Part shown: positions 38,744 through 57,288 of the stretch, in pieces
Position numbering within the stretch: the stretch's first letter is position 1
Layout of the letters: each line of letters opens with the position of its first letter
Program-made: the position numbers and the translations under genes
The notes under the pieces: generated by a model
Database searches by the model: none
The model's input: the letters and a program-made list of their open reading frames with translations, nothing else
What the model was told of the DNA's origin: nothing
From: Nitrospinia bacterium
GTDB lineage: Bacteria; Nitrospinota; Nitrospinia; JACRGO01
DNA length: 64,000 bases
Assembly: GCA_029261755.1 (NCBI GenBank)
Contig: JAJDAS010000247.1
Span: 1,616-65,615, forward strand
Direction: 5' to 3'

Positions 38744-40504
38744 ATGACCAAACCCAGCATTCTAATTATAGACGACGAGGAAGGTATCAGGTTTACCTTT
38801 CAGAAATTTCTTACCAAAGAGGGATATTCCGTATTTACTGCCGGGAATTTCCAGGAAGCCGAGTCATGGCTTAAGAAAAGGTCTTTTGATTTAGTATTCG
38901 CGGATATTATCTTGGGAGATAAATCAGGGATGGATGTTCTGCGAATGATAAAGACAATGAATCTCTCATGCCTGGTGATTATCTTTACCGGAATTCCTTC
39001 CATCGACACCGCGTCCGAGGCCATTAGGCTCGGCGCCTTCGACTATCTTATCAAGCCCGTTAATCAGGCCAAGCTTCTGAGCGAGGCGAATATGGCGCTC
39101 CGCCATAAGGCCGTTGTGGATGAAAAGGAAAAATACCGCTCCAACCTTGAGGCCATATTCAAGAGTGTTCAGGATGGAATCATCACCGTGGATGAGGAAT
39201 TAACAGGGATCGAAATAAACAATGCGGCGGAAAATTTGTTCGGATTATCCCGGAGGCATTTTATCGGAAAGAAATTGAATCACATACAAAACTGGAGAGG
39301 GAGTAAATGTCTGGAGATCCTTGTTGAAACCCTGGAGAAAAGGCGGCCTTTAAAGGCTTATCGCGTACAATGCCAACATGAAAAGGGGAACGAGCGCCTG
39401 ATGACTCTTAGCACCTATCCTCTTTTGAACGGGCAGGATCAGTTCGTAGGCGCTGTGATGACGGCCAAAGATGAAACCTATGTTGCCCACCTTGAAGAGG
39501 AGCTAGGTGAACATCGCCAATTTCACAACCTCGTTGGGAATAACAAAAAAATGCGGGAAATCTATTACCTCATAGAGAAATTAGCTGACGTTCCCACAAC
39601 GGTTCTGATCCAGGGAGAGAGTGGAACCGGGAAAGAACTAGCGGCGGATGCGATTCATCACCTGGGAAACAGAAAAGACAAACCGTTTGTTAAAGTCAAT
39701 TGTTCCGCCTTAACGGAGAGCCTGCTGGAAAGCGAACTTTTCGGACACGTTAAGGGAGCCTTTACCGGCGCAATTAAAGATAAAGTGGGAAGATTTCAAA
39801 AGGCTGATGGCGGGTCTATTTTGCTGGATGAAATCGGGGATATATCGCCGAGAATGCAGCTGCGCTTGCTGAAGGTTCTTCAAAACAAGGAATTTGAAAG
39901 AGTGGGCGAATCCACCTCCAGCAAGGTAGACATTCGTATTTTGGCGGCCACCAACCAGGACCTTTCCAAAAAGGTGCGGGAGGGCTCTTTTCGGGAGGAC
40001 CTTTACTACCGCCTGAACGTGGTAAAAATAACATTGCCTTCATTGAGGGAAAGACGGGAAGACATTCCTCTCCTGCTGGAACACTTCATAAAGAAGCTAA
40101 ATAAAAAACTGGGAAAGGAGATTGCGGGTGTTTCGGAAGAGGTAAAAAGAGGGTTCATGAATTACTCCTGGCCGGGTAATGTGAGAGAACTGGAGCATTG
40201 CCTGGAGCACTCCTTTGTTATTTGCAGCCGGCCAGTAGTTTCCTTTGAGGATTTGCCCTCTGATTTTCCCGGGTACAAAGATTCGGAAGATACGGATGGT
40301 CCTCAACGAATTCTTAAAGCCCTGGAAAATGCCTCCTGGAACAAAGCCAAAGCAGCACGCTTTCTGGGAATGAGCAGAAAAACGCTTTACAAAAAGATCA
40401 AAGGTTACAGTATTGTAACCCCTGAAGAACAAGGGATTCGTAATGAGTTTAACCCGGAACCCTTGAAATTGAAGACCTTAACCCGTAACTTGCACAGCCG
40501 ATAG
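38744..40504 (+). CDS. Sigma-54-dependent response regulator (REC-PAS-AAA+-Fis HTH), NtrC family
   Basis: It has a receiver (ILIIDDEE, FADIILGDKSG, IKP), a PAS region, and AAA+ sigma-54 interaction motifs (GESGTGKE, ESELFGHVKGAFTGA, ILLDEIGD). The C-terminal HTH is KAARFLGMSRKTLYKKIK. The start is placed at ATG 38744. Confidence 0.93.
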   Translation: MTKPSILIIDDEEGIRFTFQKFLTKEGYSVFTAGNFQEAESWLKKRSFDLVFADIILGDKSGMDVLRMIKTMNLSCLVIIFTGIPSIDTASEAIRLGAFDYLIKPVNQAKLLSEANMALRHKAVVDEKEKYRSNLEAIFKSVQDGIITVDEELTGIEINNAAENLFGLSRRHFIGKKLNHIQNWRGSKCLEILVETLEKRRPLKAYRVQCQHEKGNERLMTLSTYPLLNGQDQFVGAVMTAKDETYVAHLEEELGEHRQFHNLVGNNKKMREIYYLIEKLADVPTTVLIQGESGTGKELAADAIHHLGNRKDKPFVKVNCSALTESLLESELFGHVKGAFTGAIKDKVGRFQKADGGSILLDEIGDISPRMQLRLLKVLQNKEFERVGESTSSKVDIRILAATNQDLSKKVREGSFREDLYYRLNVVKITLPSLRERREDIPLLLEHFIKKLNKKLGKEIAGVSEEVKRGFMNYSWPGNVRELEHCLEHSFVICSRPVVSFEDLPSDFPGYKDSEDTDGPQRILKALENASWNKAKAARFLGMSRKTLYKKIKGYSIVTPEEQGIRNEFNPEPLKLKTLTRNLHSR

Positions 40505-40563: not shown

Positions 40564-40588
40564 GGTTACACATTTGTAACCGGTTACA
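40564..40588. promoter_or_regulatory. Candidate enhancer (UAS) for the adjacent sigma-54 activator: three GGTTACA/TGTAACC half-sites
   Basis: The sequence is GGTTACA-CATT-TGTAACCGGTTACA. It contains the perfect 14-bp palindrome TGTAACCGGTTACA (40575-40588). It lies about 120 nt upstream of the -24/-12 candidate, and an AT-rich tract (40638-40690) separates them. Confidence 0.45.
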
Positions 40589-40702
40589 CTTTCCCCCTTT
40601 TTTTTGTTTTTTTGCCTCTTATACTGCCACCTCCCACATTATAATTATATTATGGTTATTATTTTATAATTATATCATTATAATTTCTCCTTCATTGAGC
40701 TA

Positions 40703-40718
40703 CGGCATGAATTTCGCA
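40703..40718 (+). promoter_or_regulatory. Candidate sigma-54 (-24/-12) promoter of the chemosensory operon
   Basis: CGGCATGAATTTCGCA compares with the consensus TGGCACG-N4-TTGCA. The GG-N10-GC spacing is exact, with GG at 40704-5 and GC at 40716-7. It lies about 145 nt upstream of ATG 40861 and immediately downstream of an NtrC-family gene. Confidence 0.45.
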
Positions 40719-40860
40719 ATACAAGAAGGGGTTAAGACCTTGGCAGCCAGATCAGTGAAACGCAAAGGAGAAGATAGTTAGTCAAGCCTGAAAATTGAGA
40801 GAATTTCTGCGTCTTTTCACCCAAAACTCGTAACCCGCAACTTGTAGAAGGAATGGTGAA

Positions 40861-41418
40861 ATGAAGAGAAAACTTAGAACAAAACCTGAATATAAAACAT
40901 GCCCGTTTATTGAGAATTCCTTGGCAGACTGTTACTGCTCGGACATGAAAAGCCAAAACATTAAACTTGCCCTGAATTTCTGCGGTGGAGATTATAAAAA
41001 ATGTCCCATTTATGTAAAGGCATCAAGAGAAGGGAAAAGAATACTTGTGGCGGAGGATGATGACATTATGAGCTCCGCCCTAAAGGCCATGCTGGAATTA
41101 GCGGGCCATAAAGTCATCACCGCTTCCAATGGCAGAATGGCCCTTGATATTATCCTGAAAAACGAAGGCCCTTCAAATCCGATTTCTCTCCTTATCACAG
41201 ACCTCGAAATGCCTTTGACTGATGGCATAGAACTCATTGAAAAAATAGGCGAACTGAAACAACATATTCCGATTGTGGTAATTACTGGCTACCTGGACGA
41301 ACAAAAGGAAAAAAAATTACTGGAAAACCGGGTGGAGGAAATCATTCTAAAGCCTTTTGTGATGAAAGCTGCCGTGGAAACAGCTAATAGGATTTTGGCC
41401 AAAGAATTGGAAGGTTAA
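40861..41418 (+). CDS. Response-regulator receiver with a Cys-rich N-terminal extension
   Basis: 185-aa ORF. Residues 1-55 carry five Cys (CPFIENSLADCYCSDMK...NFCGGDYKKCPIY). A canonical receiver follows (LVAEDDD, ITDLEMPLTDG, ITG, LKPF). RBS AGGAA is present. Confidence 0.8.
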   Translation: MKRKLRTKPEYKTCPFIENSLADCYCSDMKSQNIKLALNFCGGDYKKCPIYVKASREGKRILVAEDDDIMSSALKAMLELAGHKVITASNGRMALDIILKNEGPSNPISLLITDLEMPLTDGIELIEKIGELKQHIPIVVITGYLDEQKEKKLLENRVEEIILKPFVMKAAVETANRILAKELEG

Positions 41419-41434
41419 TAACAATATTTAAAAT

Positions 41435-43534
41435 ATGAAAAAAGTTCTTTTGATTGAGGATGAAATGATAGTCATTAAAACCCTTCGATTAGCCTTGGAG
41501 GAAGAAGGGTATAAAGTGATTTTCTCCGAATGCGGGGAAAAAGGACTTGCCAAGGCCCGTTCGGAAAGGCCGGATCTTATCCTTCTCGATATTATGCTTC
41601 CCAAAATGGATGGGTTCAAGGTTTGTGAGGCCCTGAAATCGGAAGATGAGTATAAAGCGATTCCCATTATCATGCTGACTGGTTTGGGAGACACGGAAAA
41701 TATAGTGAAAGGATTTTCCGCTGGAGCCAATGATTATGTTTCCAAACCCTTCCATTTAGTTGAACTCCTTGCACGGGTGAAAACCCACATTAGAATAAAA
41801 GAAACCCATGATATTTTAATGGAAAAAGAACGGGAAAAGTCCGCCCTTCTCGATGTCTCCCAGTCACTCTCCTCGGCAGAAGACCCTTGTGAAACTCTAT
41901 TTATGATTGTCTCCTCGGTTACCGGTGTCATTGAGTCCAAACGTTGTTCCATAGTTTATGCCCACACTACAGGCACTACGGGTTGGGTGATGGCGTCCAG
42001 CGATTCGAAGGAAGTCACGCAACTTGAGATAAATTGTAACAAATATCCTGAAATCCAAAAGGTCTTGGAAACAAGGGAACCCTTGGTGATAAATAATATT
42101 TTCCAAGAGCCGCTAATGGCGCCAGCCCTGGGGGTCTTGAAAATTTCAGGCGTCAAATCAATGATGGTTTTTCCCATAATGTTAAAAGATAGGGCCATCG
42201 GCGTCCTTATCCTCAAATCCCCGAAGAAAGAAGTTATGTTCTGTGGCCGCGAGATCAGGTTTTGCCTGGTAACGTCCAACTTGGCGGCCGGCCCGCTGAA
42301 CAATGCGTATCTGGTTGAAAAATTTCACCAGGAAAAGGAACGGGAAAAGGAAACCCGCAAAGCGGCAGAGGAACAACTCCGAAAATTATCCTTGGCCATA
42401 GAACAGAGCCCTAATATAGTGGTTATGACAGACACCAACGGGAATATTAAATATGTTAATCAAAAATTTACCGAAATAACCGGCTATACCTCTAAAGAAA
42501 TACTTGGCCAAAACCCGAGACTGTTAAAGTCAGGCAAAACACCCCCTAAGGAATATGGAAGAATGTGGAATACCATTAACTCGGGCAAGGAATGGAGGGG
42601 AGAATTCTATAACAAGAAAAAGAATGGAGGTTTTTTTTGGGAATCAGCATATATAGCGCCCATTAAGAACCCGGAAGGAAAAATCACCCATTTTGTTTCA
42701 GTCAAGGAGGATATTACCGAAAAAAAACTCGCCAAGGAAAGAGAAAAGCATCAAAAGGAACTTCTTGCCCATGCAAACAGATTAACCTCCATTGGGACCC
42801 TGACGGCCGGAATTTGCCACGAGATCAACAACCCCAATCACCTTGTCATGTTATGCGCCTCAATCATTGAAAACGAATGGATGCAAATTGACGAGTTCTT
42901 TAATTCGAGAAACGACGAAGAAAGTGGCTCATTACCCCAACCCGTTGTCAGGGCATTGACAAATTTTCCAAAGCTCACCAGGGATATTCAGACCGGGGCG
43001 GAAAGGATAGAAAGAATTGTTGCGGGCATGCGTGACTTTTCCCGGTTAGACCCAACCGCCAGTGGCCAAGAAATACAAGTCAAAGACTTAATTTTTTCCG
43101 CAAAAGACCTTCTTTGGAGTCTTATTAAAGAAAGCACCGATCATTTTAAAATTGATATTCCGGACCTGCCCGCCATAAAGGGGGATTCCCAAAAACTGGA
43201 ACAGGTTTTTGTCAATTTGATCACCAATGCCTGCCATTCCCTTACGGATGCAAAAAAGGCCATTGAAATAACCGGCGCCCATGATAAATCCCGAGGTGTG
43301 ATTATTCTCCAGTTCAGGGACGAGGGAAAGGGCATGGACTCCGAGACTTTGCGGAGAGTGATGGAACCCTTCTTTACCACTAAAACAGATTCCGGCGGAA
43401 CAGGGCTGGGTGTATCGATTTCTTTCGGTATTATTAAAGATCATGGAGGTTTAATGGAGTATCAGTCGGAACCGAGAAAAGGTACCGTAGTTATTATCAC
43501 CCTCCCCGTAAACTGTGCCAAATTGAGAAGTTAA
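41435..43534 (+). CDS. Hybrid REC-GAF-PAS histidine kinase
   Basis: It has an N-terminal receiver (LLIEDE, LLDIMLPKMDG, SKPF), a GAF-like region and a PAS domain (NIVVMTDTNGNIKYVNQKFTEITGY). The H-box is ICHEINNPNH and the HATPase boxes are NLITNACHS, DEGKGMD and GTGLGVSIS. Confidence 0.9.
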   Translation: MKKVLLIEDEMIVIKTLRLALEEEGYKVIFSECGEKGLAKARSERPDLILLDIMLPKMDGFKVCEALKSEDEYKAIPIIMLTGLGDTENIVKGFSAGANDYVSKPFHLVELLARVKTHIRIKETHDILMEKEREKSALLDVSQSLSSAEDPCETLFMIVSSVTGVIESKRCSIVYAHTTGTTGWVMASSDSKEVTQLEINCNKYPEIQKVLETREPLVINNIFQEPLMAPALGVLKISGVKSMMVFPIMLKDRAIGVLILKSPKKEVMFCGREIRFCLVTSNLAAGPLNNAYLVEKFHQEKEREKETRKAAEEQLRKLSLAIEQSPNIVVMTDTNGNIKYVNQKFTEITGYTSKEILGQNPRLLKSGKTPPKEYGRMWNTINSGKEWRGEFYNKKKNGGFFWESAYIAPIKNPEGKITHFVSVKEDITEKKLAKEREKHQKELLAHANRLTSIGTLTAGICHEINNPNHLVMLCASIIENEWMQIDEFFNSRNDEESGSLPQPVVRALTNFPKLTRDIQTGAERIERIVAGMRDFSRLDPTASGQEIQVKDLIFSAKDLLWSLIKESTDHFKIDIPDLPAIKGDSQKLEQVFVNLITNACHSLTDAKKAIEITGAHDKSRGVIILQFRDEGKGMDSETLRRVMEPFFTTKTDSGGTGLGVSISFGIIKDHGGLMEYQSEPRKGTVVIITLPVNCAKLRS

Positions 43535-43565
43535 AAAACTAAAAACAATAGGAGTGAGGAAGTAC

Positions 43566-44333
43566 ATGAGGAATTTATTGATCATTAACGAGAACCGTTC
43601 CATACAAATGCTTTTAAATAAAATGGTTTTATCAGAACTAGGCGATTTTTGCGTTACCGAGGCATCCTCCAGTGAAGAAGCTCTTGAAAAACTTCAAAAG
43701 CAAAAATTCAATGTTGTTATTTCCGCTAATGAAACCGGAAGTGTGGATGGGGCGAGCATCTTTAAATTAACGCGTGAATTACCCGAAAACAAAGACACCC
43801 CTTTCATTTTAATGACTTCATCCCAAAAAAATGAAACTTTAGCAAAACTGAAAAATGAAGGCATTGAGCATTATCTTGTAACTCCCTTCGATAAAAAACA
43901 ACTCTCCACCAAGATCAACCTGGCCTGTAACCCAATAAAACTACGGACCAGCGACCGGATCAACATACCGGGCGTCATAGCTAAGGTGCATATGGGAGAC
44001 CACTATGCGAAAGCCAAGGCCGTGAATATGAGTTCCGGAGGGATTCTTTGTGATTTAGATTATTCGCATGGATTCGGAACAAACCTTCTTAAAGAAACAG
44101 GTATTGCGGTGGCATTTCCCAAGGAATATTCCGATATCCGGACAAGGGACATATCGAGCAAGTTTTTGCGCTTAGAAGTTTTGCCCTGCAATAACCATCA
44201 TTCCAATAAACAGGTCCGCGCGAGTTGGCGGTTTGTAGATGTTTCCAATGCGACAAAGAAAATTTTCGAGTTTGTCTTTCAAAAGGCCAGGAAGGATTTC
44301 GATCTATTCCCTATAAAAGAAGACCAAGAGTGA
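43566..44333 (+). CDS. Pseudo-receiver-PilZ domain protein (putative c-di-GMP effector)
   Basis: The N-terminal receiver-like fold lacks the phospho-acceptor Asp (VVISANETG where D-x-x-M-P is expected) and the conserved Lys (TPF instead of KPF). The C-terminal PilZ motifs are RTSDR (RxxxR) and NMSSGG ([DN]hSxxG), at nt 43944-44042. RBS AGGAG lies 12 nt before ATG 43566. Confidence 0.8.
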   Translation: MRNLLIINENRSIQMLLNKMVLSELGDFCVTEASSSEEALEKLQKQKFNVVISANETGSVDGASIFKLTRELPENKDTPFILMTSSQKNETLAKLKNEGIEHYLVTPFDKKQLSTKINLACNPIKLRTSDRINIPGVIAKVHMGDHYAKAKAVNMSSGGILCDLDYSHGFGTNLLKETGIAVAFPKEYSDIRTRDISSKFLRLEVLPCNNHHSNKQVRASWRFVDVSNATKKIFEFVFQKARKDFDLFPIKEDQE

Positions 44334-44413
44334 ACGTACCAATTTAAGTTTTTGAAAAATTAAAATTTTCATTCCTTTTGTACCTGCTTTCTCTCTAAAC
44401 TTCATAAATGTAA

Positions 44414-44495
44414 TGTTGGAATACTGGAATACTGGAATAGTTGGGGAAATTCCATTATCAACATTCCAATTTTCCATCATTCCGGTATTCCAATG
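44414..44495. repeat. Inverted repeat built from GGAAT words at an 8-nt period
   Basis: The left arm is TGTTGGAATACTGGAATACTGGAATAGTTGG, with GGAAT at 44418, 44426 and 44434. The right arm is AACATTCCAATTTTCCATCATTCCGGTATTCCAATG. It lies between the PilZ gene and the first MCP gene. Confidence 0.7.
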
Positions 44496-44547
44496 TCTGA
44501 ATTAAGATGGCAAATAACCCATTTTTTTTAATTAGGAGAACAAGCCC

Positions 44548-46446
44548 ATGAATAAAATGCATTCAATAAAAGTAAGGACATACACACCCTATTTTATGCT
44601 CTTGTTTTTTCTCCTGCTACAATGCGCCATTTTTTACTTCCTGGTAACGGATATGAGCAAGAAATACGCCCAGGTGGATATGGCCGGGGCCTTGCGAAAG
44701 AGGGCAGTGGAGATTGTGGACATCCTGAACCGCCACATCATGAACGACATTGAAGAGCTTGAGAAAGTATTTCAGAAAAAGAGGGCGGAATATCCCGAGG
44801 TTATTAAATCTCTCAGAAGCGGTTCCCATAAGGTTGCCGCCATTACCGATCCGGCGGTCCTGGGAAAACTTGCCAAATTGAAAGAGCAATGGAACGTCAT
44901 GCAAAAAGAGCTGGATCATGCCATGGAGCAAGGCGATGTATTGGTGGCCAATAAAAAAGAGGTGGAGAAAGGCACCTTTCCCATGGTCGGCCTCTTTAAT
45001 GAGATGGTAAAAGACTTCGAAAAGTTGAACCGCGAGGGTAACGGGTACGAAAGGAACATCAACCTGGCGGGAAAGCAAAGGGCTCTTACTTTAAAGATGT
45101 CCTACCTCATGGAGCGGTATTTCACCTCTTACGAGGAAAAAGACACGATCAGGAATGAACTCATGGGAACTGTAACAGAGTTTGAAAAGGCCCTGGAAGG
45201 TCTACAATCCGGCTCCCGAGAACTTAACCTCAAGAAAGCAAGCGGACCGGTGGTGGCCAAACTGAATCTTGCGGAAAAAGAATGGAAGAAAAGGAAGGGT
45301 TTCCTGATTCCGGCTATAAATGCAAAAGACAACTTTTACAAGGGGATTGACGTCCTTATGAATGTTCGAGCCCCAGAGATTGTGGCCTTTGCTGATGACC
45401 TGACTAAAGCGGTAGCCAACGGCGCCAGGGAAGACGCCAAACGGGCTTTGGCGATGATGGCCTGCCTAATATTCTTATCCGTTGCCATCATAATAATTTC
45501 CATGTGGCTTCTCAATATCCATCTCCTCAAACCCCTCTTTCGGATCAGAGAGGTGATCGGAAATATGGCCAAGGGCGACCTGAGCCAAAAGACAGGGATC
45601 AAAATCTTCTTTTTGGGTGTGGACCTGAAAGACGAAGTGGAAGGCCTTGCGGATAGCGTGGATGATATGGGAAGGAACCTTGGTAATCTGATCCGCGATA
45701 TCACGGAATCAACGGACAGAATTGCTTCCACTTCCACCGAACTGGCCGCTTCTTCCGAACAAATGTCCGTTAACGCCGATAGCCAGGCATCCCATGCCTC
45801 CACGCTGACCACCTCCAGCGATGAAATGTCCAGTACCATCATGGACGTGGCAAAAAATTCAACCACAGCGGCCTCCGCCTCCAGGACCGCAAAGGAAAAG
45901 TCCCACGAAGGGAAGGATGTTATCGGGCAATCCCAGCGCGTTATCGCCACGCTAGCGCAGAATTCCAACAAAATAGGAGAAGTGATACACCTCATAGCTG
46001 ATATTGCCAACAAGACTGACCTCCTTGCCATTAACGCGGCCATTGAGGCGGCTAACGCGGGAGAGCAAGGAAAAGGTTTCGCCGTGGTGGCGGATGAGGT
46101 GCGCAAACTGGCGGAAAGGACCACCAAGGCCACCAACGAGATAACCGAAGTCATTACCGTAATTCAGGAAAACACCAAAGGAGCCATCGATTCCATGGAC
46201 CATGCGGGGACCTCTATGGAAATCATAACCAAACAAGTGGACGACGCCACCGGAATGATTGAACAGATCGCCACGGCCACCGAGGAACAATCTGCAACCA
46301 TAATAACCTTTTCCGAAAACATCCGCGTTATAACCGATTCAAGCCGGGAGGTTACCGGCGCCTCTTCGGAAACAGCCAGGGCGGCGGAGGATCTGAGCAG
46401 GCTTTCCTCGGAATTAAAGCAGATGATGGAAAGGTTTAAATTGTAG
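44548..46446 (+). CDS. Methyl-accepting chemotaxis protein with a PilJ/NarX-type periplasmic sensor
   Basis: It has two TM segments. The periplasmic region contains two P-box-like motifs ([12 protein letters not shown] and [17 protein letters not shown]). HAMP and the conserved MCP signalling hairpin follow ([43 protein letters not shown]). Confidence 0.93.
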
Positions 46447-46453
46447 GAGCTTT

Positions 46454-46915
46454 ATGGAAATTACTAAAGAAAACACACACAGCAACGAAACCGGCAAATT
46501 CGTGACCTTTAGCATTGAGGATGAATCCTTTGCCGTGAATATCCTGAATGTTCAGGAAATTAACCAGATGAATGAAATTACCATTACCAGGGTTCCCAAA
46601 TCCCCGAATTTTCTAAAAGGTGTCTTGAACCTCCGAGGGAAAATTGTTCCGGTAATTAACTTCAGGGTCCGCCTTGGTCTCCATGAACGGGAATGTGGCC
46701 ATGCTGCCAGAGTGATTATAGCAAAGCTGAAGGGAAACCTTTACGGCCTAATGGTGGACTCTATCTCGTCAGTTGTGGAGTTGGCCCAAAGCAATATTGA
46801 TCCACCGCCTTCTTCCTTGGAAGGAATTGACGCTGAATACATTGAGGGAATATCCAAAGAGGGTGGGAACCTTATGACGATTTTGAATCTTGGGAAAATA
46901 CTCTCTTTTACTTAA
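46454..46915 (+). CDS. cheW: Chemotaxis coupling protein CheW
   Basis: 153-aa single CheW-like domain (FVTFSIEDESFAVNILNVQEI...GVLNLRGKIVPVINFR). It starts 7 nt after the MCP stop. Confidence 0.92.
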   Translation: MEITKENTHSNETGKFVTFSIEDESFAVNILNVQEINQMNEITITRVPKSPNFLKGVLNLRGKIVPVINFRVRLGLHERECGHAARVIIAKLKGNLYGLMVDSISSVVELAQSNIDPPPSSLEGIDAEYIEGISKEGGNLMTILNLGKILSFT

Positions 46916-46939
46916 AAAGTTTACATAAAGACGCAAACC

Positions 46940-49750
46940 ATGGCTAAAAAAAGAAATAAAAAGACGAAACCCGCAATCGGCTCCGACCCTTTCAGCGGCC
47001 ACGAGGATATCATTGAGGGCTTTTTTTCTCCTTCTAGTCAACCGGAAATGGGAGAAGAGACCTCACAGCCCGCCGAGTCCGAGCCAGAGGTAAAGCCCAT
47101 ATCCACACAACCTGAACCCATGAAAAAGCCTGCCACGGAAAAAAAAGCTGAACAAAAAGAGGCAGACGCGGCTCCCGCCGTTATATATCCACAGGAGATC
47201 ATTGATGACTTCATCCAGGAATCTCAGGAAGGCCTGGACCAGCTCGATACGGACCTGGTTGCCTTGGAAGATAATCCCGGTGAGATGGACCTTTTAAACA
47301 AGGTCTTTAGAACCATGCATACCTTGAAAGGAGCGGCGGGATTCCTGGGCTTCAATTCCATTCAATCCACGGCCCACAAATCAGAAGACGTCCTGAATAG
47401 AATCAGGACCGGAGATATGGAGTCAAGCCCTGAAATTGTGGACGTTCTCCTGGAAGCCCTGGATGTGATCAAGCACCTGATGTCGGATCTGGCTAATTCC
47501 GGAAAAGAGTCAACAGATATTTTCCACGTTATGAATCGCTTAGAGAAGTTATTAAATGGCGCGGAGGGGAAATCATCAAAGCAGGAAATTCTTCTGATTG
47601 AAAAAGAAGATCAAGCGAGTTCGGTAGAACCGGAAAAGACGGGAAAAAAAGAATTGCCCGTGGCATCGCCCGCAGGTAAGTCCGCCTCCCTCATAAGACA
47701 GAACATCAGCACGATCCGAGTGGACGTAGAGCGTCTCGACAGCCTTATGAACCTGGCGGGTGAGTTGGTTCTCGCCAGGAACAGACAAGTCCAGCTTATC
47801 AAGGAGGTGGAACCCGGTTTTTCAGGAGAAGAGGAAAAATACACGGAATTGAACACAGCTGCCCACCAGCTGGATTTCATCACCACGGAGCTACAATTCG
47901 CTGTCATGAAGACCCGCATGCTCCCTGTATCCACTGTATTCAGCAAGTTTACCAGGGTAGTGCGGGATTTGAGCCGCTCCCTGGGAAAAGAAGTGGAATT
48001 GGTTATAGAAGGGGAAACAACGGAGTTGGACAAAAACGTTATAGAGGAAATTGGAGACCCCATGGTTCATCTTATTAGAAACGCCGTGGACCATGGAATA
48101 GAAAAACCGGAAGACCGCAAACAAAAGGGAAAAAATCCAAAGGGCACGGTGAAACTCTCCGCCTATTACGAGGGCAGCTATGTGATCATCGAGATCAAAG
48201 ATGACGGCAAGGGAATGGACCCGGAAAAACTGAAGGAAAAAGCCGTGGAAAAAGGGATGTTCACCGCCGAAGAGGTCTATTCCATGAGCCGGAACGAGGC
48301 ATTCAATCTTGTTTTCGCGGCGGGCTTTAGTACTGCTGAAGAGGTGAGCGACGTATCCGGCCGAGGTGTGGGAATGGATGTGGTGTGCTCCAATATTGAA
48401 AAGCTCAAGGGGATTATCGAGCTGGATTCATCGCCCGGACATGGCAGCTTGGTCAAGATCAAAATCCCCCTTACCCTGGCCATCCTCCAAACCCTTTTAT
48501 GTAAAGTCGGTGGCGAACGTTACGCCATTCCCCTGGATGCGGTTAAAGAAACGGTTCGTGTGCCGGCCTCCGAACTCCGGGCAGTAAGGGGGAAAAAGGT
48601 GATAAAGCTTCGAGATGAAATCCTTCCCCTCGTCTTTTTGCATGAAGTGTTGGATCTGGAAGCAGAAGACAGCGACGAAATTTGCGTGGTTGTGGTGCAG
48701 CATGGAATGCAGAGACTGGGCTGCGTGGTGCAAGAAACCATTGGACAAGAGGAGGTTGTCATTAAGTCTCTGGATGTTCTGAAAGATATGTGCGCAGGGA
48801 AATTTTTCTCAGGCGCAGCCATCCTTGGGGATGGAATCATTACCCTGATCCTTGACGTCTCTGAATTGATGCGTTTTGGCCACACGGCCGGACTTCAGGG
48901 GGAAGGGGAACTGGAAAAAGAAGAGGAACAAAGGAAAGAAGATGTCCTGAGTGTATTGCTGGTGGATGACGGTGCTCCGGAACAGTACGCCCTTCCGATA
49001 AAATCCATTAACAACATAGAAAATATAGCATCAAACGACATCGAATCCGTAGGCGGAAGAAAAGTGGTCAGGTACGAAGGAGAGGTGCTCCCCATCATCC
49101 ATTTATACGATATTACCAGCTTCCCCCCCGCCAGGCAGGAACCCGACATTTACCTGGTCATTTCAAAAGTGAACGGGGACACGGCAGGGCTGGCCGTTAA
49201 CAAGCTAAGGGGTATGAAGGAAATCAACAGGAGCGAGATGGATGACTGTTTTAGCGCCTCCGGTGTGGCCTACAGCGCGGTACTGGACAACCGGGTTACC
49301 CTCATCCTCAAAGAGGACGCGGTAATCAAACGAACCCTGGACGAAAGCCCGGTGCATCAGGGCACTCCTGCCCTACCAACAAAACACGGCAGGATATTGG
49401 TAGTGGACGATTCACCGGTGGCCAGGGAAACCATAAAAAAACAACTGCTTGAGGATGGTTTTGACGTTATTTTGGCAGTGGACGGAAAGGACGCCATGGA
49501 TAAATTGTCAGATATCGACATGGTTATAACCGATCTGGAAATGCCGGGGATGAACGGTTACGAACTTACTCGCGCCATTAAAGCCGGCTACCACGATCTC
49601 CCTGTCCTCATGGTTACCAGTAGGGACGGAGAAGAGGATCGACTGGAGGGACTTAAGGCAGGCGTCGACGACTATCAGGCAAAGCTGGACAGCCACAGGT
49701 TGCTCAGTTCAGTTAGACGGCATATTAAGAAATCTACTGTATGGCTCTAA
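46940..49750 (+). CDS. cheA: Hybrid CheA kinase: Hpt-dimerisation-HATPase-CheW-CheW-REC
   Basis: It has the Hpt motif [12 protein letters not shown] and HATPase boxes ([24 protein letters not shown]). Two successive CheW-like domains follow ([14 protein letters not shown]...; [15 protein letters not shown]...). The C-terminal receiver has [19 protein letters not shown] and VTS. The N-terminal ~90 aa is low-complexity. Confidence 0.93.
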
Positions 49751-49793
49751 TTCTTTAATCATTAATATCTTTAAACGATTTATAAGGAAAAAA

Positions 49794-51365
49794 ATGAAAC
49801 TTACCATTGTAAAAAAACTATTTCTGGGGTTTGGCATTATAATTGCCTTGTCTTTTGCCGGCAGTCTATTAAACATAACTTCCTTCAAAGGCATCCAGGG
49901 AAAAGCGCATTTAACCGTCACCGAGTCGGCCCCTTTTGCCCTGGACGCCATGGAGATGAAAATGTGCGTTATACAGATACAGCAATGGATGACGGATATT
50001 TCCGCTACTCGCGGGGCAGAGGGTTTTGATGACGGTTTCGATGAAGCGAAAAAATATGCCGCCAGGTTCAAGGAGCTTTTGAACAAATTCAGGGAAATGT
50101 TTGAAAGAGAAAAATATCAAGCCGGATTGGACGAATTGACAAGTTTGGAAAAGGATTTTCAGGACTATTACAACATGGGCAAAAAAATGGCCGATATCTA
50201 CATCCAATACGGTCCTGTGGAAGGGAATAAGATGATGCAGGAATTCGATCCCTTTGCGGAAAAAATGTCGAAAAGCATCGAAACCTTTGTTGACGAGCAA
50301 ATGAATGAACTTAACCAATCGATGAATGATATCCTCGACTCTTCCACATCAGGCATTTCCACCGCTACCCTCATATTGATCCTTTCCCTGCTTGCGGGAA
50401 TCCTGTTCGCCGCCACCCTTGGACGTTCCATTGCAAAGGCGATAAAAACGGTTGTGGAAACCGTCAAGGATATCTCCGAAGGGGAAGGGGACTTGACAAA
50501 AAAAATGGATGATTCGGAGAAGGATGAATTCGGGGAATTGGCGGGCCACATGAACAAGTTGATGGCTAACCTGGCGGAGATGGTATGCGATGTAATGGAT
50601 CGAGTGGAACTGGTTTCCGCCGCCGCCTCGGAACTGGCGGCCTCATCGGAACAGATGTCCGCCACGGCCGAGGAGCAATCGGCCCAGAGTGATGAACTTA
50701 CCGCATCGACAAAGGAGATAGAAAATAAAATCAATGAAGTGAACGAAAACACAAATACCGCGTCCCAAGCGTCCCATTCCACCCTGGAGGCCACCATGGC
50801 TGGGAAATCCGTGATAGAAGAAGCGAGTCATTCCATTGTCTCACTGGGGAAAGAGTCCCAGAGGATAGGAGAAATGGTGAATGCCATTGCCGATATCGCC
50901 GGGAAAACGGACCTTCTAGCCATTAATGCCGCTATCGAGGCCGCTAACGCCGGTGAACATGGAAAAGGTTTCGCGGTGGTTGCTGATGAAGTAAGAAAGC
51001 TGGCGGAAAGTACGGCGAAGGCCACTAACGAAATTACAACGATAATCTCAACCATAAGGACCAGCTCCAGTGAGGCCGTGCAAGCTATGGAAAATGCCGG
51101 AAACTCCATGGTTTCTATAACCCAGAATGCCGAAACCACGGCACACGTGGTGGAGCAGGCCTCATCTGCCGCTGAGAGCCAGGCAACGGACATTAAAAAT
51201 ATTGCTGATATCATCAACGTCATTTCCGCTTCCAGCTCCCAATTCGCCGCCGGTATCACCGAGGGCGCTAAAACCGCAGAAGAATTAAGTATGAGTGCTG
51301 AAGACCTGCGGATGTTGATGGGAAAATTTAAGGTGGGCAAGTGGAATACGGATGACGGGATGTAG
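49794..51365 (+). CDS. Methyl-accepting chemotaxis protein (four-helix-bundle-type periplasmic domain)
   Basis: It has two TM segments flanking a helical region of about 160 aa, then HAMP and the MCP signalling hairpin ([43 protein letters not shown]). Confidence 0.93.
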
Positions 51366-51418
51366 GGTGAGAATAACGAGGGATGATGTTTTAAGTATTC
51401 AACTTAATAAAGGAATCT

Positions 51419-53119
51419 ATGCCCATGAGGAAATGGAAAGACCTGAAAATTAGCTACAAATTGATCATCCTGGTTGGGTTCACAGTGTTTGTTTTAAACA
51501 TCCTGGGGGCGGTTTTGATGATTTCCAACAAGGAAAAAGCTCTTGTAAAGGCATATCACGACGCGGCCTTTACAACCACGCAGCTCCAGCGAAATATGGT
51601 TGTGGAAGTGATGAAGGTACGTCTTGATGATCCCGAAGACCTTGGCGTAAGCATACTGGATAACTGGCTAGGGAAAATGAGCGAAGCTACCCATGGGATT
51701 TCCTGGGTAGCATGGCACCATAAAGTTATCAAAGACCAAAGGGAGAGTGGGTCGGATGTCATGGAAGAGCCGAAGGATGAAATTGACAAAAAGGTAATTG
51801 GCACAGGAGAAGCTGTTTTTGAAATGGTCAATCTCCGGTCTGATCTCTTTCCGGAAAACGGTTTTCGAAAAGGAGATACCGTCTATCGGGCAACGATCCC
51901 GGTAATTCTGGATGGAGACCCGGATACCAGTGTGGAATCCTGCCACACTTGCCACGAGGATGGTATGGGACAAAAGAGCGGGGAAGTTATAGGCGTTATA
52001 AGTATTGGCCTTCCTATGAGTGAAGATATCATGGAGTTAGGCTCTTTCAAAACCAGGGCAACCATTGGTGCCCTGTTAATTTCTCTTCTGGTGGCTTCCC
52101 TCATCTTTGTTTTGGTCAGGAACCTGATCACTAAGCCATTTGATAAGTTCAGAGAGGTCCTTGTGGACATTGCCCGGGGAGAAGGAGATTTAACCAGTAG
52201 ATTGGAAATTAACTCAAAAGACGAGATCGGAGAAGTTTCTGAAGTATTCAACCAGTTCATCAGCAAAATAAGGGAAATAGTAATTCAAATTAAAGATATT
52301 GTTTTGAAGGTAGCCACGGCCTCTAATGAAATGGCCTCATTTGCTGAAGATGGGGCGAGGGTTGCAAAAAAACAGGCGGCCACATCCGAGGAAGCCGCAA
52401 GTGCCGTTGAAGAAATGTCCGCAACCAGCGTCGAAATGGCCCAGAGTTCCTTAAAAGCAGACCAGTCTGCGTCCTCCACATCCCAAATGGCCGACAAAGG
52501 GGCTGAGATGGTTTCTCGAACAACGGAAGAGATGAAAAAAATAAAAACCGCCGTGGAAGAAGCTGAAATGGAAGTGGGTGAATTGGGAAAAAGATCGCAA
52601 GAAATCGGTGAAATTATTGGGGTCATAGATGACATTGCAGACCAAACCAACCTCCTTGCCTTGAACGCGGCCATTGAAGCTGCCAGGGCTGGCGAACATG
52701 GAAGAGGTTTTTCCGTAGTTGCCGATGAAGTGAAAAAATTGGCGGAGAAGACCCAAAACGCTACCGGGGAGATTTCCAATATGATACGGAACATGCAAAA
52801 GGAAACCGGCGAGGTAATAAACGCTATGAAAACAGGAAATTCTCAGGTTGATTTAGGGGTTACCATTGCGGGAGAGACGCAAAAGGCGTTTCAAGGAATC
52901 GTGGAGTTGGTAGCAAATGTCAACGACCTGATTAGCCAGATTGCCTCCGCTGCCGAACAACAGTCCGCCGCGTCTTCGGAGATTGCCAATAATGTGGCGA
53001 CAATATCGGATGTCTCCAAGGAAGCCACATCGGGCGCTGATAATTTAATGGACTCCGCGACTAAGATGAAAAAACTAGGTGAGGATTTAAATACCATAGT
53101 TAATCAATTCAAGGCTTAA
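51419..53119 (+). CDS. Methyl-accepting chemotaxis protein with a c-type-heme (CxxCH) periplasmic sensor domain
   Basis: It has two TM segments. The periplasmic region ends in ...[45 protein letters not shown], with CHTCH at nt 51941-51955. That pattern is typical of DUF3365/Tll0287-like heme-c PAS-like sensors. HAMP and the MCP hairpin follow ([40 protein letters not shown]). Confidence 0.9.
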
Positions 53120-53187
53120 TGGGGTTGCCGCTAAGAACATAACCAAGACGGTCCTCATGAACCATACAAATAGTAAAAACAATAGTT

Positions 53188-53432
53188 GCCCTGTAGGGGC
53201 TATATACTTCAGCCCAGGGTTAAAATACTCCGCTTTTTGAGTATTGCAACCCTGGGTTCCTTTTCATCATTTTTTTACCCTGCAGGGGTAACATAAAAGC
53301 GAGCAACCTTAGGGGTTTGTTTTATGCAACCCCTTCAGGGTTGAAATTTTGTTGTTTTTTAATCCCAGGGTTGCGGCATGTAACAAACACATGCCTTAAC
53401 CCTGGGCTAGCGTATGGTACCCCTTCAGGGTA
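53188..53432. repeat. Two inverted copies of a ~115-nt three-hairpin element (possible structured RNA or BIME-like cluster)
   Basis: Copy 1 consists of short hairpin GCCC-TGTAG-GGGC (53188-53200), long hairpin 53213-53256 and short hairpin TACCC-TGCAG-GGGTA (53276-53290). Copy 2 consists of CAACCC-CTTCA-GGGTTG (53327-53343), long hairpin 53364-53406 and TACCC-CTTCA-GGGTA (53418-53432). Both long hairpins share the outer stem CCCAGGGTT/AACCCTGGG. Their 7-bp inner stems differ but are each fully paired. Confidence 0.65.
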
Positions 53433-53516
53433 AAATTGAATGGTTTTTTTATTAAAACTTGCTGAACGGTTATAAATTAAAAAGAAAAAGCAATAAAAAA
53501 AAGGAGAAGTTTTAGC

Positions 53517-53921
53517 ATGGCAAAAATATTAATAGCGGAAGACGACACAATTATTCAAAAACTGGTTTCATTGAACGTGGAGAAAATGGGGCATATCGCT
53601 TTTATAAGCCCCAACGGAAAACATGCTTATGAGGCTTTGAAGGCAAATCCGGAGTTCGAAATCCTCATTACAGATATCATGATGCCGGAAATGAATGGAG
53701 AGGATCTTATTAAAACTTTACGGGGGAATTCGGCCTTTCAGGGCCTGCCCATAATCATTATGTCCGCTATTGTGGGATATAAAGATATCAAAAACCTTTT
53801 GGAGCTTGGAGCAACCCGCTTCCAGCCCAAACCTATAAATATGCCTCAGTTGAAGAAAAATATTGAGGAGTGCATGCTCGAAAAAAAACTGAGTGCGAAA
53901 AAAGAAGCCAAGGGCAAATAA
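53517..53921 (+). CDS. Single-domain response regulator (CheY-like)
   Basis: 134-aa ORF with ILIAEDD, ITDIMMPEMNGED, IMSA and PKP. A strong RBS, AAGGAG, lies upstream. Confidence 0.88.
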   Translation: MAKILIAEDDTIIQKLVSLNVEKMGHIAFISPNGKHAYEALKANPEFEILITDIMMPEMNGEDLIKTLRGNSAFQGLPIIIMSAIVGYKDIKNLLELGATRFQPKPINMPQLKKNIEECMLEKKLSAKKEAKGK

Positions 53922-53985
53922 TCCCTATTTGAAGTGGCTAAGGCGTTCTAAAGCCTGAGTAGTTACCAAATATTGTCACTACTCG

Positions 53986-54135
53986 GGTTAACCGGTTCAA
54001 GGTTCCCGGTTGAAAGCCTTGCTCTCTGACAGCTGGCTCCATAGTGGCGAAGCCCTGTGGAGCCATGGTGTACGTTGGCTTCAAATCTTTTTTAACCTTG
54101 AACCGTGAACCTGGAACGTTGAACCTTAGCAGTTA
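53986..54135. repeat. Inverted repeat built from GGTT/AACC words at a 7-nt period
   Basis: The left arm is GGTTAACCGGTTCAAGGTTCCCGGTTGAAAGCC, with GGTT at 53986, 53994, 54001 and 54008. The right arm is TTTAACCTTGAACCGTGAACCTGGAACGTTGAACCTT, with AAC at 54104, 54111, 54118, 54125 and 54132. An inner 7-bp hairpin, GGCTCCA...TGGAGCC, lies at 54036-54064. Confidence 0.65.
54034..54048 (+). promoter_or_regulatory. Weaker sigma-54-like -24/-12 candidate upstream of the hybrid kinase gene
   Basis: TGGCTCCATAGTGGC has correct GG-N10-GC spacing, but the -12 box reads TGGC rather than TTGC. It lies about 120 nt upstream of ATG 54170. Confidence 0.25.
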
Positions 54136-54169
54136 GCAAATACTTTATATAAACAATGGAATTTCTTTC

Positions 54170-57100
54170 ATGAAAATTATCCAAAAATTCTACCTCATTT
54201 TCTCATTGATTTTTCTTTTAATCCTTTCCGGTGGCTACTTGTCCATTAAAACAAGTGAAAGGATACTGGAAAAATCCATCGAAGAACATTCTCTGCTCTT
54301 TGCTTCCGAGGTTCATGAAAAAATTGATAGAAATATCCAGCGCAGAATCGAAATCTTCCAGGAGTATTCCCATGACCTCATCTTACGAGAAGGAATTATT
54401 CAATCAAACAAGGAGTTCGAGAAACTAGAGAACATACGGGAATACATCGATGAAAAAGACCGGGAATGGACGTTCGCTGCAAAGGAAACCATCACCCCCT
54501 TTATGCGTACTATGATGAATAATCGGTTGGCCGGCGAATTGAGCGAAAAGTACACATACTATAATAAGAAATATGCTTACCCCATTTTCGGGGAAATCAT
54601 TGTTACCAATAAATTCGGGGCCAACGTGGCTATTACTGGAAAGACCACTGATTACCGGCAGGATGACGAGGAATGGTGGCAGGTGGCAAAAAGGGACGAT
54701 GTGTATGTAAAGGATGTGGAGTTTGATGATAGCGCTGGTGTTTATTCAATCGATATAGGCATTGGCATCAAAGATGGAGAAGGAAATTTCATCGGCGTGT
54801 TCAAAATTATTTATAACATCCAGGATGTCATCAATGAATTAAAAAATATGAGCAAGAGTGAATTATTTAAAAAACATAAAAGCGCTAAATACACACTGGT
54901 AACCCGGGATGTGAATGTCATCTTTTCCACTGAGAATTATAAACTGCTCCAGGGCCTTACTTTAGTAGAGCCTCACAGCCATGTTACAGATGAACTGTCT
55001 TTGGTGGAAAAAAGAAAGCTTAGTCATGGCAACCGCCTTATGATTCATTCTCATTCCAAGGGGTATAAAGACTTTAAAAGTTTAGGATGGATCTCCATTG
55101 TTGAGTTCGACACGGATGAAATTTATTTGCCGATAGAGCAGCTGAAAAAATCCGCTGGGTTAATAACCGTCCTCGTGGCACTTCTAGCGGCGATAATAGG
55201 AATATTTATCTCAAGAAACATCAGAAAGCCCATTGTTAAGCTGAGCAATGCTGTGAAAAAGATCGGGGCTGGGAAAAGAGACGTACAGCTGGAGCTAAAA
55301 ACTAATGATGAAATTGGAGAACTGGCGGAGTCTTTTAAAAAAATGATGGAAAATCTGGTCACAACCACGGCATCCCGAGATGAATTATTGGAGGAAATCA
55401 AAAGACGAGAAAAAACTGAAAGAGAACTTCGAGAGAGCCGCGCGAGCCTTGCGGAGGCTCAGCGTGTTGCCCACCTGGGGTTTTGGGATTGGGATATAAA
55501 GCGGAATATCCTTCATTGGTCGGATGAAACCTATCGCATTTTTGGCATAACCAAGGAGACGTTCGAGGCCACTCATGAGGCGTTTATGAACTCCGTCCAC
55601 CCCAATGATCAAGAGCTTGTAACAAAATCGGTGGATGCAGCCCTGTATAAGCGAAGCCCGTATGATATAGAACACCGAATCGTCTTGCCGGACGGGCAAA
55701 AGCGCGTGGTTCACGGAAAAGCCATGGTTACATACAGTGAAGAAGGTTTACCGATTCGAATGCTCGGAACGGTCCTGAATATCACCGAACAAAAACTAGC
55801 CGAGCAGAAATTGCGGTTAACACAATTTGCCATCGATCGTGCCGTAAGCTGTGCCTTTTGGATGGGGCCGGACGCAAAATTCATCTACGTAAATAATGTG
55901 GCCTGTAAAAAACTCGGTTATACCAGGGAGGAATTGCTCTCCATGTCTGTTCATGATATTGGTCCCGATTTTCCGGCGGAAAGATGGCCGGAACATTGGG
56001 TCGATCTCAAAGAAAACACCACCCTTACCTTTGAATCCCGCCACCAAAGAAAGGATGGGACCGTATTCCCCGTGGAAATTATGGCCAACTTCCTGGAGTT
56101 TGAAGGGAAGGAATACAACTGTGCCTTTGCCCGCGATATTACCGAACGCAAGATAGCCGAGGAGAAGTTAAAAGATTTTGCGGAAGAACTGGAATGGAAA
56201 AATTTGACCCTGGAGCAGGCCAAGGATGAAGCGGAAAAGGCGACGGAACTTAAAGATAAATTCGTATCACTGGTGGTCCATGATCTTAAGTCGCCACTCA
56301 CATCTATTACCGGTTTTTTACAACTAATACGTGATGAGGCGGACCCCTCAAACACGGAACAAAAGGCCATGTTTGATATTATTTTAGACAGCTCCAACAA
56401 GATGATCGAAACCATTGACGGATTGTTGGACTTAAGTCGTCTCAAGGCCGGCCATATAATACCCAATAAGGAATTTATCGAAGCCCGTTCCCTCGTAAAG
56501 GCTGTTATAAATCGTCTGGCTCACCTTGCCTCTGAAAAGGGAATAGAGCTGATCAATGACATTCCCCAGGAGACCCGCCTGAATGCCGACTATGAACTCT
56601 TCTTCGGAGTTATCCAAAACCTCCTTTCCAACGCCATAAAGTTTTGCAAAAGAGGAGACCAAATCACCATATTTCTACCCCTGGATTCAAAAAGCGCCGT
56701 GGCGGTGAAAGATACCGGCGTTGGGATTCAAGAAGAGCTTCTACCGGACCTTTTTAAGCATCATGTAAAAACATCCACCCATGGGACCGCTGCGGAAAAA
56801 GGCACCGGAATGGGACTCCCCTTTGCCCATGAAATTATGAAGGCTCATGGCGGAATACTAACCGTACAGTCGGAAGCAGGAAAAGGGAGTGTCTTTTGCG
56901 CGGAGCTTCCCTATGTAAGACCGCGAATTTTAATCGTTGAAGATGATAAGGAAACGCGCGCCCTATTCAAAATCAAGCTGAAAAAAATAGATGTGATTAC
57001 TATAGAAGCGGAAAACGGAAAAGAAGCCTTGGCCGCAATGGAGGAGAACGATTTTGACTTAATCCTTGCCGATATTCAAATGCCGGCAATGGGTGGTTTT

Positions 57101-57277: not shown

Positions 57278-57288
57278 CTTTAACAACC

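Follow-up and report, generated by a model that had tools for sequence, protein, structure and literature searches.

The 64,000-nucleotide (nt) stretch of a Nitrospinia bacterium genome analysed here (contig JAJDAS010000247.1, positions 1,616 to 65,615; hereafter the window) carries a chemotaxis-like gene cluster centred on a CheA kinase of an uncommon type. Nine co-directional open reading frames (ORFs), named g1 to g9 (Table 1), were counted between positions 40861 and 53921, rather than the ten of an earlier note made from the sequence alone, and no further ORF of at least 50 amino acids (aa) was found in the gaps of this interval. The spacers are those the note had listed, namely 16, 31, 214, 7, 24, 43, 53 and 397 nt. 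All core Che matches to Pfam lie above the gathering thresholds, and the CheA domains, a CheW and methyl-accepting chemotaxis proteins (MCPs), by which a Che system is recognised, are all present. We conclude that the cluster is genuine, that its output is probably other than swimming, and that it varies a known theme, the non-motility Che system, and is not a new kind of machine.

Table 1. Genes and sequence features of the chemotaxis-like cluster and its surroundings (positions in the window)
Feature	Positions	Strand	Content and basis
g1, single-domain receiver	40861-41418	+	Pfam REC at residues 61-171; phospho-acceptor residues intact
g2, REC-GAF-PAS-HisKA-HATPase	41435-43534	+	Pfam; no transmembrane segment
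g3, pseudo-receiver with probable PilZ	43566-44333	+	Pfam, motifs RTSDR/NMSSGG, predicted model
g4, MCP	44548-46446	+	PilJ-type periplasmic domain, HAMP, 36H signalling domain; Pfam, transmembrane segments
g5, CheW adaptor	46454-46915	+	Pfam CheW, E 6e-35
g6, hybrid CheA	46940-49750	+	Hpt-dimerisation-HATPase-CheW-CheW-REC; Pfam
g7, HAMP-MCP	49794-51365	+	36H, periplasmic domain of ~155 aa; Pfam, transmembrane segments
g8, HAMP-MCP	51419-53119	+	40H, one CXXCH; Pfam, transmembrane segments
g9, stand-alone receiver	53517-53921	+	Pfam; phospho-acceptor residues intact; 25% identical to E. coli CheY (blastp)
Sensor kinase	36833-38713	+	three PAS, HisKA, HATPase; Pfam; no transmembrane segment, hence soluble
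NtrC-family sigma-54 activator	38723-40504	+	REC, PAS, AAA+, HTH_8; Sigma54_activat E 2.6e-69; ATG at 38744
Candidate upstream activator site 1	40403-40420		palindrome GGTTACAGTATTGTAACC, within the activator ORF at its 3' end
Candidate upstream activator site 2	40564-40581		palindrome GGTTACACATTTGTAACC, followed by an extra GGTTACAC half-site
AT-rich tract	40636-40690		internal repeats D4, I10-I11; between the palindromes and the promoter candidate
-24/-12 promoter candidate	40704-40718	+	GGCATGAATTTCGCA, 143 nt upstream of the g1 ATG
Imperfect hairpin, 78 nt	44416-44493		g3-g4 gap; three GGAATACT units and inverted copies; repeats I4, I16
Nested hairpins	53186-53433		g8-g9 gap; CCCAGGGTT...AACCCTGGG twice, ACCC-N-GGGT units, T-runs
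Partial che cluster, different CheA type	13549-18069	+	cheA 13549-15720, cheY 15722-16153, cheD 16461-17054, cheB 17020-18069; Pfam

Nearly all domains that had been proposed for these proteins were recovered by Pfam; the PilZ domain of g3 is matched below threshold, and the 4HB sensor suggested for g7 has no Pfam match. No NCBIfam family reached its curated cut-off for any protein, the upstream activator included. The cluster indeed encodes no CheR, no CheB and no phosphatase: domains of CheR, CheB, CheZ, CheC and CheX were missing from g1-g9 and from the remaining ORFs covered by the scan of 34-62 kb, and the ORFs scanned across the 64 kb included no flagellar gene.

The hybrid CheA, g6, begins with an 85-aa low-complexity region, bears the Hpt histidine in the motif HTLKG and has no P2 domain. 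Full-length relatives are scarce, with only seven others among 5.8 billion proteins. The nearest of them (P0002) is 67% identical to g6, followed by P0003, from a deltaproteobacterial metagenome-assembled genome, and P0004 at 45-47%, and by P0005-P0008 at 41-43%. Two CheW domains and a receiver occur in every one of them, along with one to three Hpt domains. In a neighbour-joining distance tree of the P3-P5 core, the eight proteins form a monophyletic clade in 94 of 100 bootstraps, and this small clade is an uncharacterised and unstudied branch of CheA. Many GTDB matches that seemed full-length proved, on local re-annotation, to be artefacts in which tblastn had run a CheA together with an adjacent CheY or CheV.

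Over the core, the F3-like single-CheW CheA-REC kinases of Deferribacteres, Nautiliales and Helicobacter (Campylobacterota) share 55-59% identity with g6, gammaproteobacterial kinases of the cheY-cheZ-cheA type about 50% and E. coli CheA 43-45%; in the tree, its clade sits next to F3- and F6-like kinases. CheAs with two CheW domains are nearly all of class F5 (PMC10782961), and the domain order of g6, with its duplicated CheW and C-terminal receiver, is identical to that of the F5 CheAs of Azospirillum Che1, Rhodospirillum centenum Che1, Caulobacter and Azorhizobium (PMC10782961). However, the g6 core is only about 45% identical to that of an alphaproteobacterial two-CheW CheA (L061) and stands apart from it in the tree. 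Both this kinase and the two-CheW, receiver-bearing CheA of Bdellovibrio (L014), whose F5 labels are themselves inferred, have CheW-CheY-CheB-CheR neighbours and fall elsewhere in the tree, whereas g6 has no CheY-CheB-CheR neighbours. Thus, g6 appears F5-like by architecture but not by similarity to the F5-like comparators.

Seven neighbourhoods of the CheA clade were read, that of P0002 not being among those covered. Their common part consists of an MCP, CheW and CheA, and the conserved core can be written as 36H-MCP, CheW, CheA and a second 36H-MCP. The MCP-CheW-CheA portion of the gene order is therefore recurrent, while the Cys-rich receiver and the pseudo-receiver-PilZ protein occur nowhere else with this CheA. 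CheR is encoded in none of the seven neighbourhoods and CheB in one (L006); CheZ was absent from the four related loci scanned with a blastp panel, and three neighbourhoods have no stand-alone receiver at all. Cyclic-nucleotide and cyclic-dinucleotide modules recur beside these kinases. In L002, a CheW-PilZ fusion (L002:5595-6362) with canonical RAHER and DISRSG motifs lies directly upstream of the MCP and CheA of the same clade, and GGDEF, PilZ and REC-GAF-HD-GYP genes are found in the same neighbourhood; no CheW-PilZ fusion is named in the titles or abstracts of the 25 best-ranked of 102 literature matches. In L003, the end of a GAF-GGDEF gene is separated from CheW by 2 nt, and in L006 a REC-GGDEF gene lies nearby. 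These two loci also carry a gene for a ParA/MinD-like ATPase between CheW and CheA (L003:4503-5240, L006:7629-8369). In the subclade with three Hpt domains (L001:6303-9236, L090:6158-9100, L091:6263-9205), GAF and cNMP-binding genes are conserved beside a divergently transcribed MCP, with no CheY, CheB or CheR. Taken over the seven neighbourhoods, the lack of methylation enzymes (CheR never, CheB once) and the cyclic-(di)nucleotide modules are clade-wide traits.

The three receptors of the cluster belong to two length classes. The signalling domains of g4 and g7 align without gaps to E. coli Tar and Tap and are hence of class 36H, whereas g8 has symmetric 14-residue insertions in both arms, which place it in class 40H; it aligns without gaps to 40H receptors and scores 262 bits against the CtpM model. 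The MCPs beside the CheAs of L001, L002, L003 and L006 are all 36H and have in common with g4 and g7 a distinctive tip that includes (Q/H)GKGF. The sensor of g7 shows homology to the sensors of the MCPs in L006 and L001 (E 1.6e-13 and 4e-9, respectively). Which receptors can share an array depends on their length class, and those of classes 36H and 40H usually stay apart (PMC11253619). This rule, together with the 36H MCPs found throughout the clade, points to g4 and g7 as the cognate inputs of g6, and g8 probably belongs, by its sequence class, to an array or kinase other than theirs. A single operon-like run thus carries two receptor length classes.

The earlier note had called g8 a heme-c MCP. 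A single CHTCH motif is indeed present at residues 175-179, and heme identity is read from this motif only. It holds the only two cysteines of the protein and is situated between transmembrane segments 8-37 and 212-239, that is, in the periplasm. In this, g8 resembles DcrA of Desulfovibrio and GSU0582 and GSU0935 of Geobacter, which are likewise MCPs with two transmembrane segments and whose periplasmic domain of 150-180 aa has its one CXXCH close to the C-terminus (PMC8396549); however, it has no detectable sequence similarity to the solved Geobacter heme domains. For the g8 sensor no homologue, no Pfam family and no PDB sequence match at E<=10 was found, and neither homology nor a PAS-like fold in common with the solved heme sensor domains was detected, the AlphaFold model made with no alignment being unusable at a pLDDT of 34. 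A heme domain like that of Tll0287 (DUF3365) was considered and set aside, there being no Pfam match to it even at E<=10. The sequence makes g8 a plausible candidate for a redox or gas receptor that would be co-expressed here and assemble with a different kinase.

Among the soluble components, g1 has an N-terminal extension of 55 aa with five cysteines in its first 48 residues (C14, C24, C26, C41 and C48). The extension has no Pfam match, and an exhaustive HMMER search of 1.84 billion representatives returned no full-length homologue of g1, though that search was swamped by receiver domains and is uninformative on the Cys-rich extension itself. The product of g2 is a receiver-controlled soluble histidine kinase of the type of R. 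centenum CheS3. In g3, the acidic pair DD, D57 and K109 of a receiver are replaced by NE, A and T, and the label of pseudo-receiver is correct since the acidic pocket, the phospho-accepting aspartate and the lysine are all missing. Its only detectable homologue (P0126, 41% identity) conserves the pseudo-receiver, and the gene of P0126 stands by itself in unrelated surroundings. As g1 and g3 are near-orphans, the gene order of the cluster is lineage-specific.

Both c-di-GMP-binding motifs of a PilZ domain are found in g3, RxxxR as RTSDR and (D/N)xSxxG as NMSSGG, and both are kept in P0126 (RTHDR and NISSGG), which has a weak precomputed PilZ match. A shallow AlphaFold model of g3 (pLDDT 67.5) comprises the receiver, a six-stranded barrel and a C-terminal helix, the last two at pLDDT 50-65. 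A fold search with this model matched receiver domains only and gave PilZ no independent confirmation, and the C-terminal half had only chance-level matches to cNMP domains among PDB sequences. On its motifs, a PilZ domain in g3 is probable, and a c-di-GMP link is credible given these motifs, the CheW-PilZ fusion in one relative and the GGDEF genes abutting two others. A REC-GGDEF response regulator, likely a diguanylate cyclase, is encoded 13 kb upstream of the cluster (27417-28382) and might supply the c-di-GMP that g3 would sense.

A PAS kinase and a REC-PAS-AAA+-HTH_8 activator with the GAFTGA motif lie directly upstream of g1, as had been proposed and as Pfam confirms, and the triple-PAS kinase is the likely partner of the adjacent activator. 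The kinase has in common with g2 an H-box helix of the form LxxIGxLxAGxxHEINNP, and the two are 32% identical over the DHp-CA region (37970-38713 and 42740-43534, respectively); to judge from this similarity, they might address one receiver. The palindrome GGTTACA-N4-TGTAACC occurs in just two exact copies in the 64 kb, each of 18 bp and 161 bp apart, at the boundary between the activator gene and g1. They precede the promoter candidate GGCATGAATTTCGCA by about 285 bp and 125 bp, within the 80-300 bp expected of upstream activator sites, and the AT-rich tract in between may be a DNA-bending region. The promoter candidate has the correct spacing of GG and GC and is the sole match to a relaxed motif that is both intergenic and correctly oriented; it departs from TGGCAC-N5-TTGCW at 3 of 11 specified bases. 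Of the palindromic activator site and -24/-12 promoter that had been claimed here, the placement and the GAFTGA activator thus hold, while the promoter match is weak taken alone. The layout is that of a textbook enhancer-dependent promoter in which the promoter element by itself carries little weight, and sigma-54 control of the operon is plausible from the activator, the two palindromes and the mediocre -24/-12 match.

The two large gaps in the cluster are both structured, as had been claimed, with RNA folding z-scores of -3.7 (214 nt) and -9.0 (397 nt). The element in the g8-g9 gap is, from its hairpins and T-runs, likely a terminator, an attenuator or an RNA-stability element. The gap after g9 (53922-54169) is structured as well (z = -6.4), and there are two other hairpin gaps in the window (6939-7146 and 62469-62996), all five having z of about -3.7 to -9.0, which makes such gaps a habit of the genome and not specific to this operon. 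Nothing in them came near the gathering score of an Rfam family or riboswitch. Their repeat units differ from gap to gap (CGCGAAT, GGAATACT, CCCAGGGTT/ACCCCTTCAGGGT, GAACC), and a REP-like repeat family across the gaps was rejected because no k-mers beyond A/T runs are common to them. The short spacers make g1-g3 and g4-g8 likely transcription units, and g9 may be on a separate transcript. Signalling genes run on co-directionally past g9 (54170-62023), encoding a membrane-bound hybrid HAMP-PAS-PAS kinase with a receiver, a second membrane-bound PAS kinase, a lone receiver and a two-receiver kinase. This places the cluster within a larger island of signalling genes that spans about 25 kb (36.8-62 kb).

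The window holds another, partial che cluster (13549-18069), absent from the earlier note, whose CheA (CheA-1) is placed away from g6 in the tree; this set has no MCP, CheW or CheR. Its CheB is 51-52% identical to CheBs beside CheA-1-like kinases, and the CheB that lies beside a g6 relative in L006 is not among its 14 best matches. As the window CheB groups with the other CheA type, a nearby CheB of the same class as g6, which the note had named as evidence against its proposal, was not found. The gene contents of the two clusters are complementary: MCPs and CheW are encoded in the studied one, which lacks CheB and CheD, and components might be shared between them. As an orphan set, cheA-cheY-cheD-cheB is also a candidate kinase partner for g8; no heme-motif MCPs were found beside CheA-1-like kinases elsewhere, so that only receptor length class would link g8 to CheA-1.

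The gene order had been described as unrecognised among known systems, but it has a precedent in the Che3 cluster of R. centenum, where a CheA-REC hybrid occurs alongside a REC-PAS kinase and a single-domain receiver (PMC3868531). Together with Myxococcus xanthus Che3 and its CrdS and CrdA, this system is the closest characterised analogue. In R. centenum Che3, which acts in cyst formation, CheA3-REC uses its own receiver as a sink and phosphorylates the receiver of CheS3, a REC-pseudoREC-PAS kinase, and CheS3 alone phosphorylates the single-domain CheY3 (PMC3868531). At the level of architecture, the likeness extends to the hybrid CheA-REC, the soluble REC-PAS kinase, the single-domain receiver, the MCP and CheW, and to a non-phosphorylatable receiver in the circuit, the second REC of CheS3 there and g3 here. 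The differences are also considerable: R. centenum Che3 has CheB3, CheR3 and two CheW genes, whereas the present cluster has neither CheB nor CheR; CheS3 belongs to the HWE kinases and contains two receivers, whereas g2 is a REC-GAF-PAS-HisKA protein; and R. centenum Che3 has no PilZ, Cys-rich receiver, PilJ-type MCP, heme-motif MCP or adjacent NtrC-type gene, while the CheA here has two CheW domains.

Since the same three parts are present in both (here g6, g2 and g9 or g1), a relay chain may be outlined for the cluster by analogy. The 36H receptors g4 and g7 would control autophosphorylation of g6 via CheW; phosphate on g6 would drain into its own C-terminal receiver as a sink and would also be passed to the N-terminal receiver of g2, which in turn would set the phosphorylation of g1, g9 and possibly the NtrC-like activator. 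By the motifs of g3 and the CheW-PilZ fusion of a relative, c-di-GMP would enter through nucleotide binding to the g3 PilZ domain, and the dead receiver of g3, plausibly a docking or decoy module, would dock on the kinase or the array and modulate its output. The CheW-PilZ fusion of L002 suggests, by a Rosetta-stone argument, that the PilZ module acts at the array in this clade. The PAS kinase and NtrC-type activator plausibly drive the operon from the sigma-54 promoter via the two palindromes. The output is taken to be other than motility from gene content alone, that is, from the lack of motor genes and the presence of a second kinase, PilZ and an NtrC-type neighbour. On this reading, to which we give an even chance, the cluster would encode a non-canonical phosphorelay in the style of the 'alternative cellular function' chemosensory pathways.

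Several observations weigh against it. CheB and CheD are encoded 23 kb from the cluster, and the receptors g4, g7 and g8 keep methylation-type EE/EQ motifs. By sequence, the core of g6 is closest to flagellar-type CheAs, so that a role in motility is possible, and motAB and flagellar genes adjoin the related cluster in L002. The PilZ match of g3 (PF07238) is below the cut-off (E 0.061; 14.1 against 22.5 bits), although it covers positions 3-101 of the 102 of the profile. Neither g1 nor g3 is ever conserved with this CheA, which makes their functional tie to it one of adjacency alone. The relaxed -24/-12 motif is not enriched in the window (3 matches against 2.8 expected), and no rpoN gene was seen among the window ORFs scanned. 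Finally, the hairpins in the gaps may terminate or attenuate transcription, which weakens the idea of a single transcript, most of all for g9.

It could be, then, that no single system is present, and that an MCP-CheW-CheA-MCP module lies beside unrelated two-component genes, in the units g1-g3, g4-g8 and g9. The assumption of a single pathway is in fact doubtful, given that g8 is 40H as against 36H for g4, g7 and the MCPs of the relatives, and that g9 lies beyond the 397-nt hairpin gap. Such a mosaic would agree with the near-orphan status of g1 and g3, with the lone occurrence of the sole g3 homologue, with the strong hairpins in the 214- and 397-nt gaps, some of them followed by T-runs, and with the kinases and receivers that go on co-directionally to 62023. 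However, the spacers within g1-g3 (16 and 31 nt) and g4-g8 (7-53 nt) are very short, the c-di-GMP modules that recur beside the relatives make an accidental position of the PilZ gene unlikely, and the REC-PAS kinase, hybrid CheA and single receiver together match a characterised circuit (PMC3868531). We regard this explanation as doubtful, though it deserves serious consideration.

Alternatively, the cluster may serve ordinary flagellar chemotaxis, with CheB and CheD supplied by the 13.5-18 kb set, CheR encoded elsewhere in the genome, g9 acting as the motor CheY and the other receivers and kinases being unrelated. The closeness of the g6 core to F3- and F6-type flagellar CheAs is in favour of this, as are the methylation-type motifs of the three receptors, the lack of MCP, CheW and CheR in the other, perhaps complementary, che cluster, and the fact that two CheW domains with a receiver form the predominant F5 flagellar architecture (PMC10782961). 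The flagellar genes beside L002 and the CheB beside L006 also fit. Yet the two-CheW CheAs that do have CheW-CheY-CheB-CheR neighbours (L061 and L014) belong elsewhere in the tree, six of the seven related neighbourhoods are devoid of CheB and all of them of CheR, CheZ is missing from the four loci scanned, and a stand-alone receiver from three neighbourhoods. Moreover, the window CheB sides with those of the other CheA type, g9 is just 25% identical to CheY, and no flagellar gene was encountered in the ORFs scanned across the 64 kb. A flagellar role thus seems unlikely.

The PAS kinase and the NtrC-like activator could also be the output of the Che system instead of its gate. In M. xanthus Che3, the phosphorylation state of the NtrC homologue CrdA is controlled by CheA3 together with the kinase CrdS (PMC3147164); in a comparable arrangement here, the targets would lie elsewhere, and the palindromes may serve autoregulation. 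The two clusters are alike in having a hybrid CheA-REC, two MCPs, CheW and an NtrC-family activator with a partner kinase; the output is other than motility in M. xanthus and probably so here. The kinase and activator genes here are immediately upstream of the CheA-REC cluster and co-directional with it, the scan reported no terminator-like site between the activator stop codon and g1, and the common H-box type of g2 and the upstream kinase means that both could feed the activator. In M. xanthus, however, CrdA is the output and not a gate, CrdS is a membrane-bound HAMP kinase and not a soluble triple-PAS protein, and Che3 has CheB and CheR and no CheY-like receiver, whereas CheB and CheR are absent here and stand-alone receivers (g1 and g9) are present. 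The sole two palindromes of the 64 kb, with a -24/-12-like element downstream of them, fit local control. Gate and output are, in any case, mutually compatible roles that could coexist in a feedback loop, and an output role in place of the gate is improbable.

Within the non-canonical phosphorelay that we prefer, a bolder proposal is that the cluster represents an unclassified class of chemosensory system, with a P5-duplicated and REC-fused CheA, private 36H MCPs and no adaptation by methylation, in which c-di-GMP would gate the array through CheW-PilZ or through a decoy pseudo-receiver-PilZ protein competing for the phosphotransfer site of CheA. We consider this proposal quite improbable.

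The individual traits of the proposed phosphorelay have counterparts in other systems. Chemosensory kinases are coupled to c-di-GMP in Wsp of Pseudomonas and Esn of Geobacter (PMC5585712, PMC11253619), and the order CheW-ATPase-CheA seen in the relatives L003 and L006 is also that of Geobacter esnB-ATPase-esnC (PMC5585712). In Wsp and Esn, however, c-di-GMP is the output, made via a REC-GGDEF protein, whereas the cluster here encodes a PilZ receiver and no cyclase; in addition, Wsp has CheR and CheB, and the Esn receptors are 40H. PilZ domains are attached to chemosensory components, as here, in Azospirillum Tlp1 and Aer and Azorhizobium Cbp1 (PMC6406031, PMC6454048), but in this cluster the PilZ is not part of an MCP: a protein of its own carries it together with a dead receiver, and in a relative it is fused to CheW. 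M. xanthus PixA pairs PilZ with a receiver in the order PilZ-REC, while in g3 the receiver is N-terminal (PMC8316039).

Elsewhere in the window, genes for a tyrosine recombinase (22748-23716), a DUF4143 AAA ATPase (32344-33534) adjoining a tRNA gene (33955-34038) and a Fic protein (3593-4714) are possible traces of mobile elements.

Thus, non-motility Che systems, hybrid CheAs, second kinases, NtrC-type partners, PilZ-linked receptors, a PilZ-receiver protein, links between Che and c-di-GMP, and heme-c MCPs are all already known, and what is new is their particular combination here and the small uncharacterised clade of CheAs with 36H MCPs and no CheR. The practical consequences are modest; the bacterium is uncultured, and precedents exist for the general principles. 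Since this clade, with two CheW domains and a receiver in the kinase, 36H receptors and no CheR, is unstudied, work on any one member would give the classification of chemosensory systems a further data point. If the proposed phosphorelay is correct, three signalling currencies would meet at one array, namely ligand or redox sensing by MCPs, a two-kinase His-Asp phosphorelay, and c-di-GMP. The CheW-PilZ fusion of a relative provides a concrete and testable hypothesis for direct tuning of an array by the second messenger, and the gating of a receptor array by a second messenger through PilZ adaptors is the most testable new idea to come from this locus.

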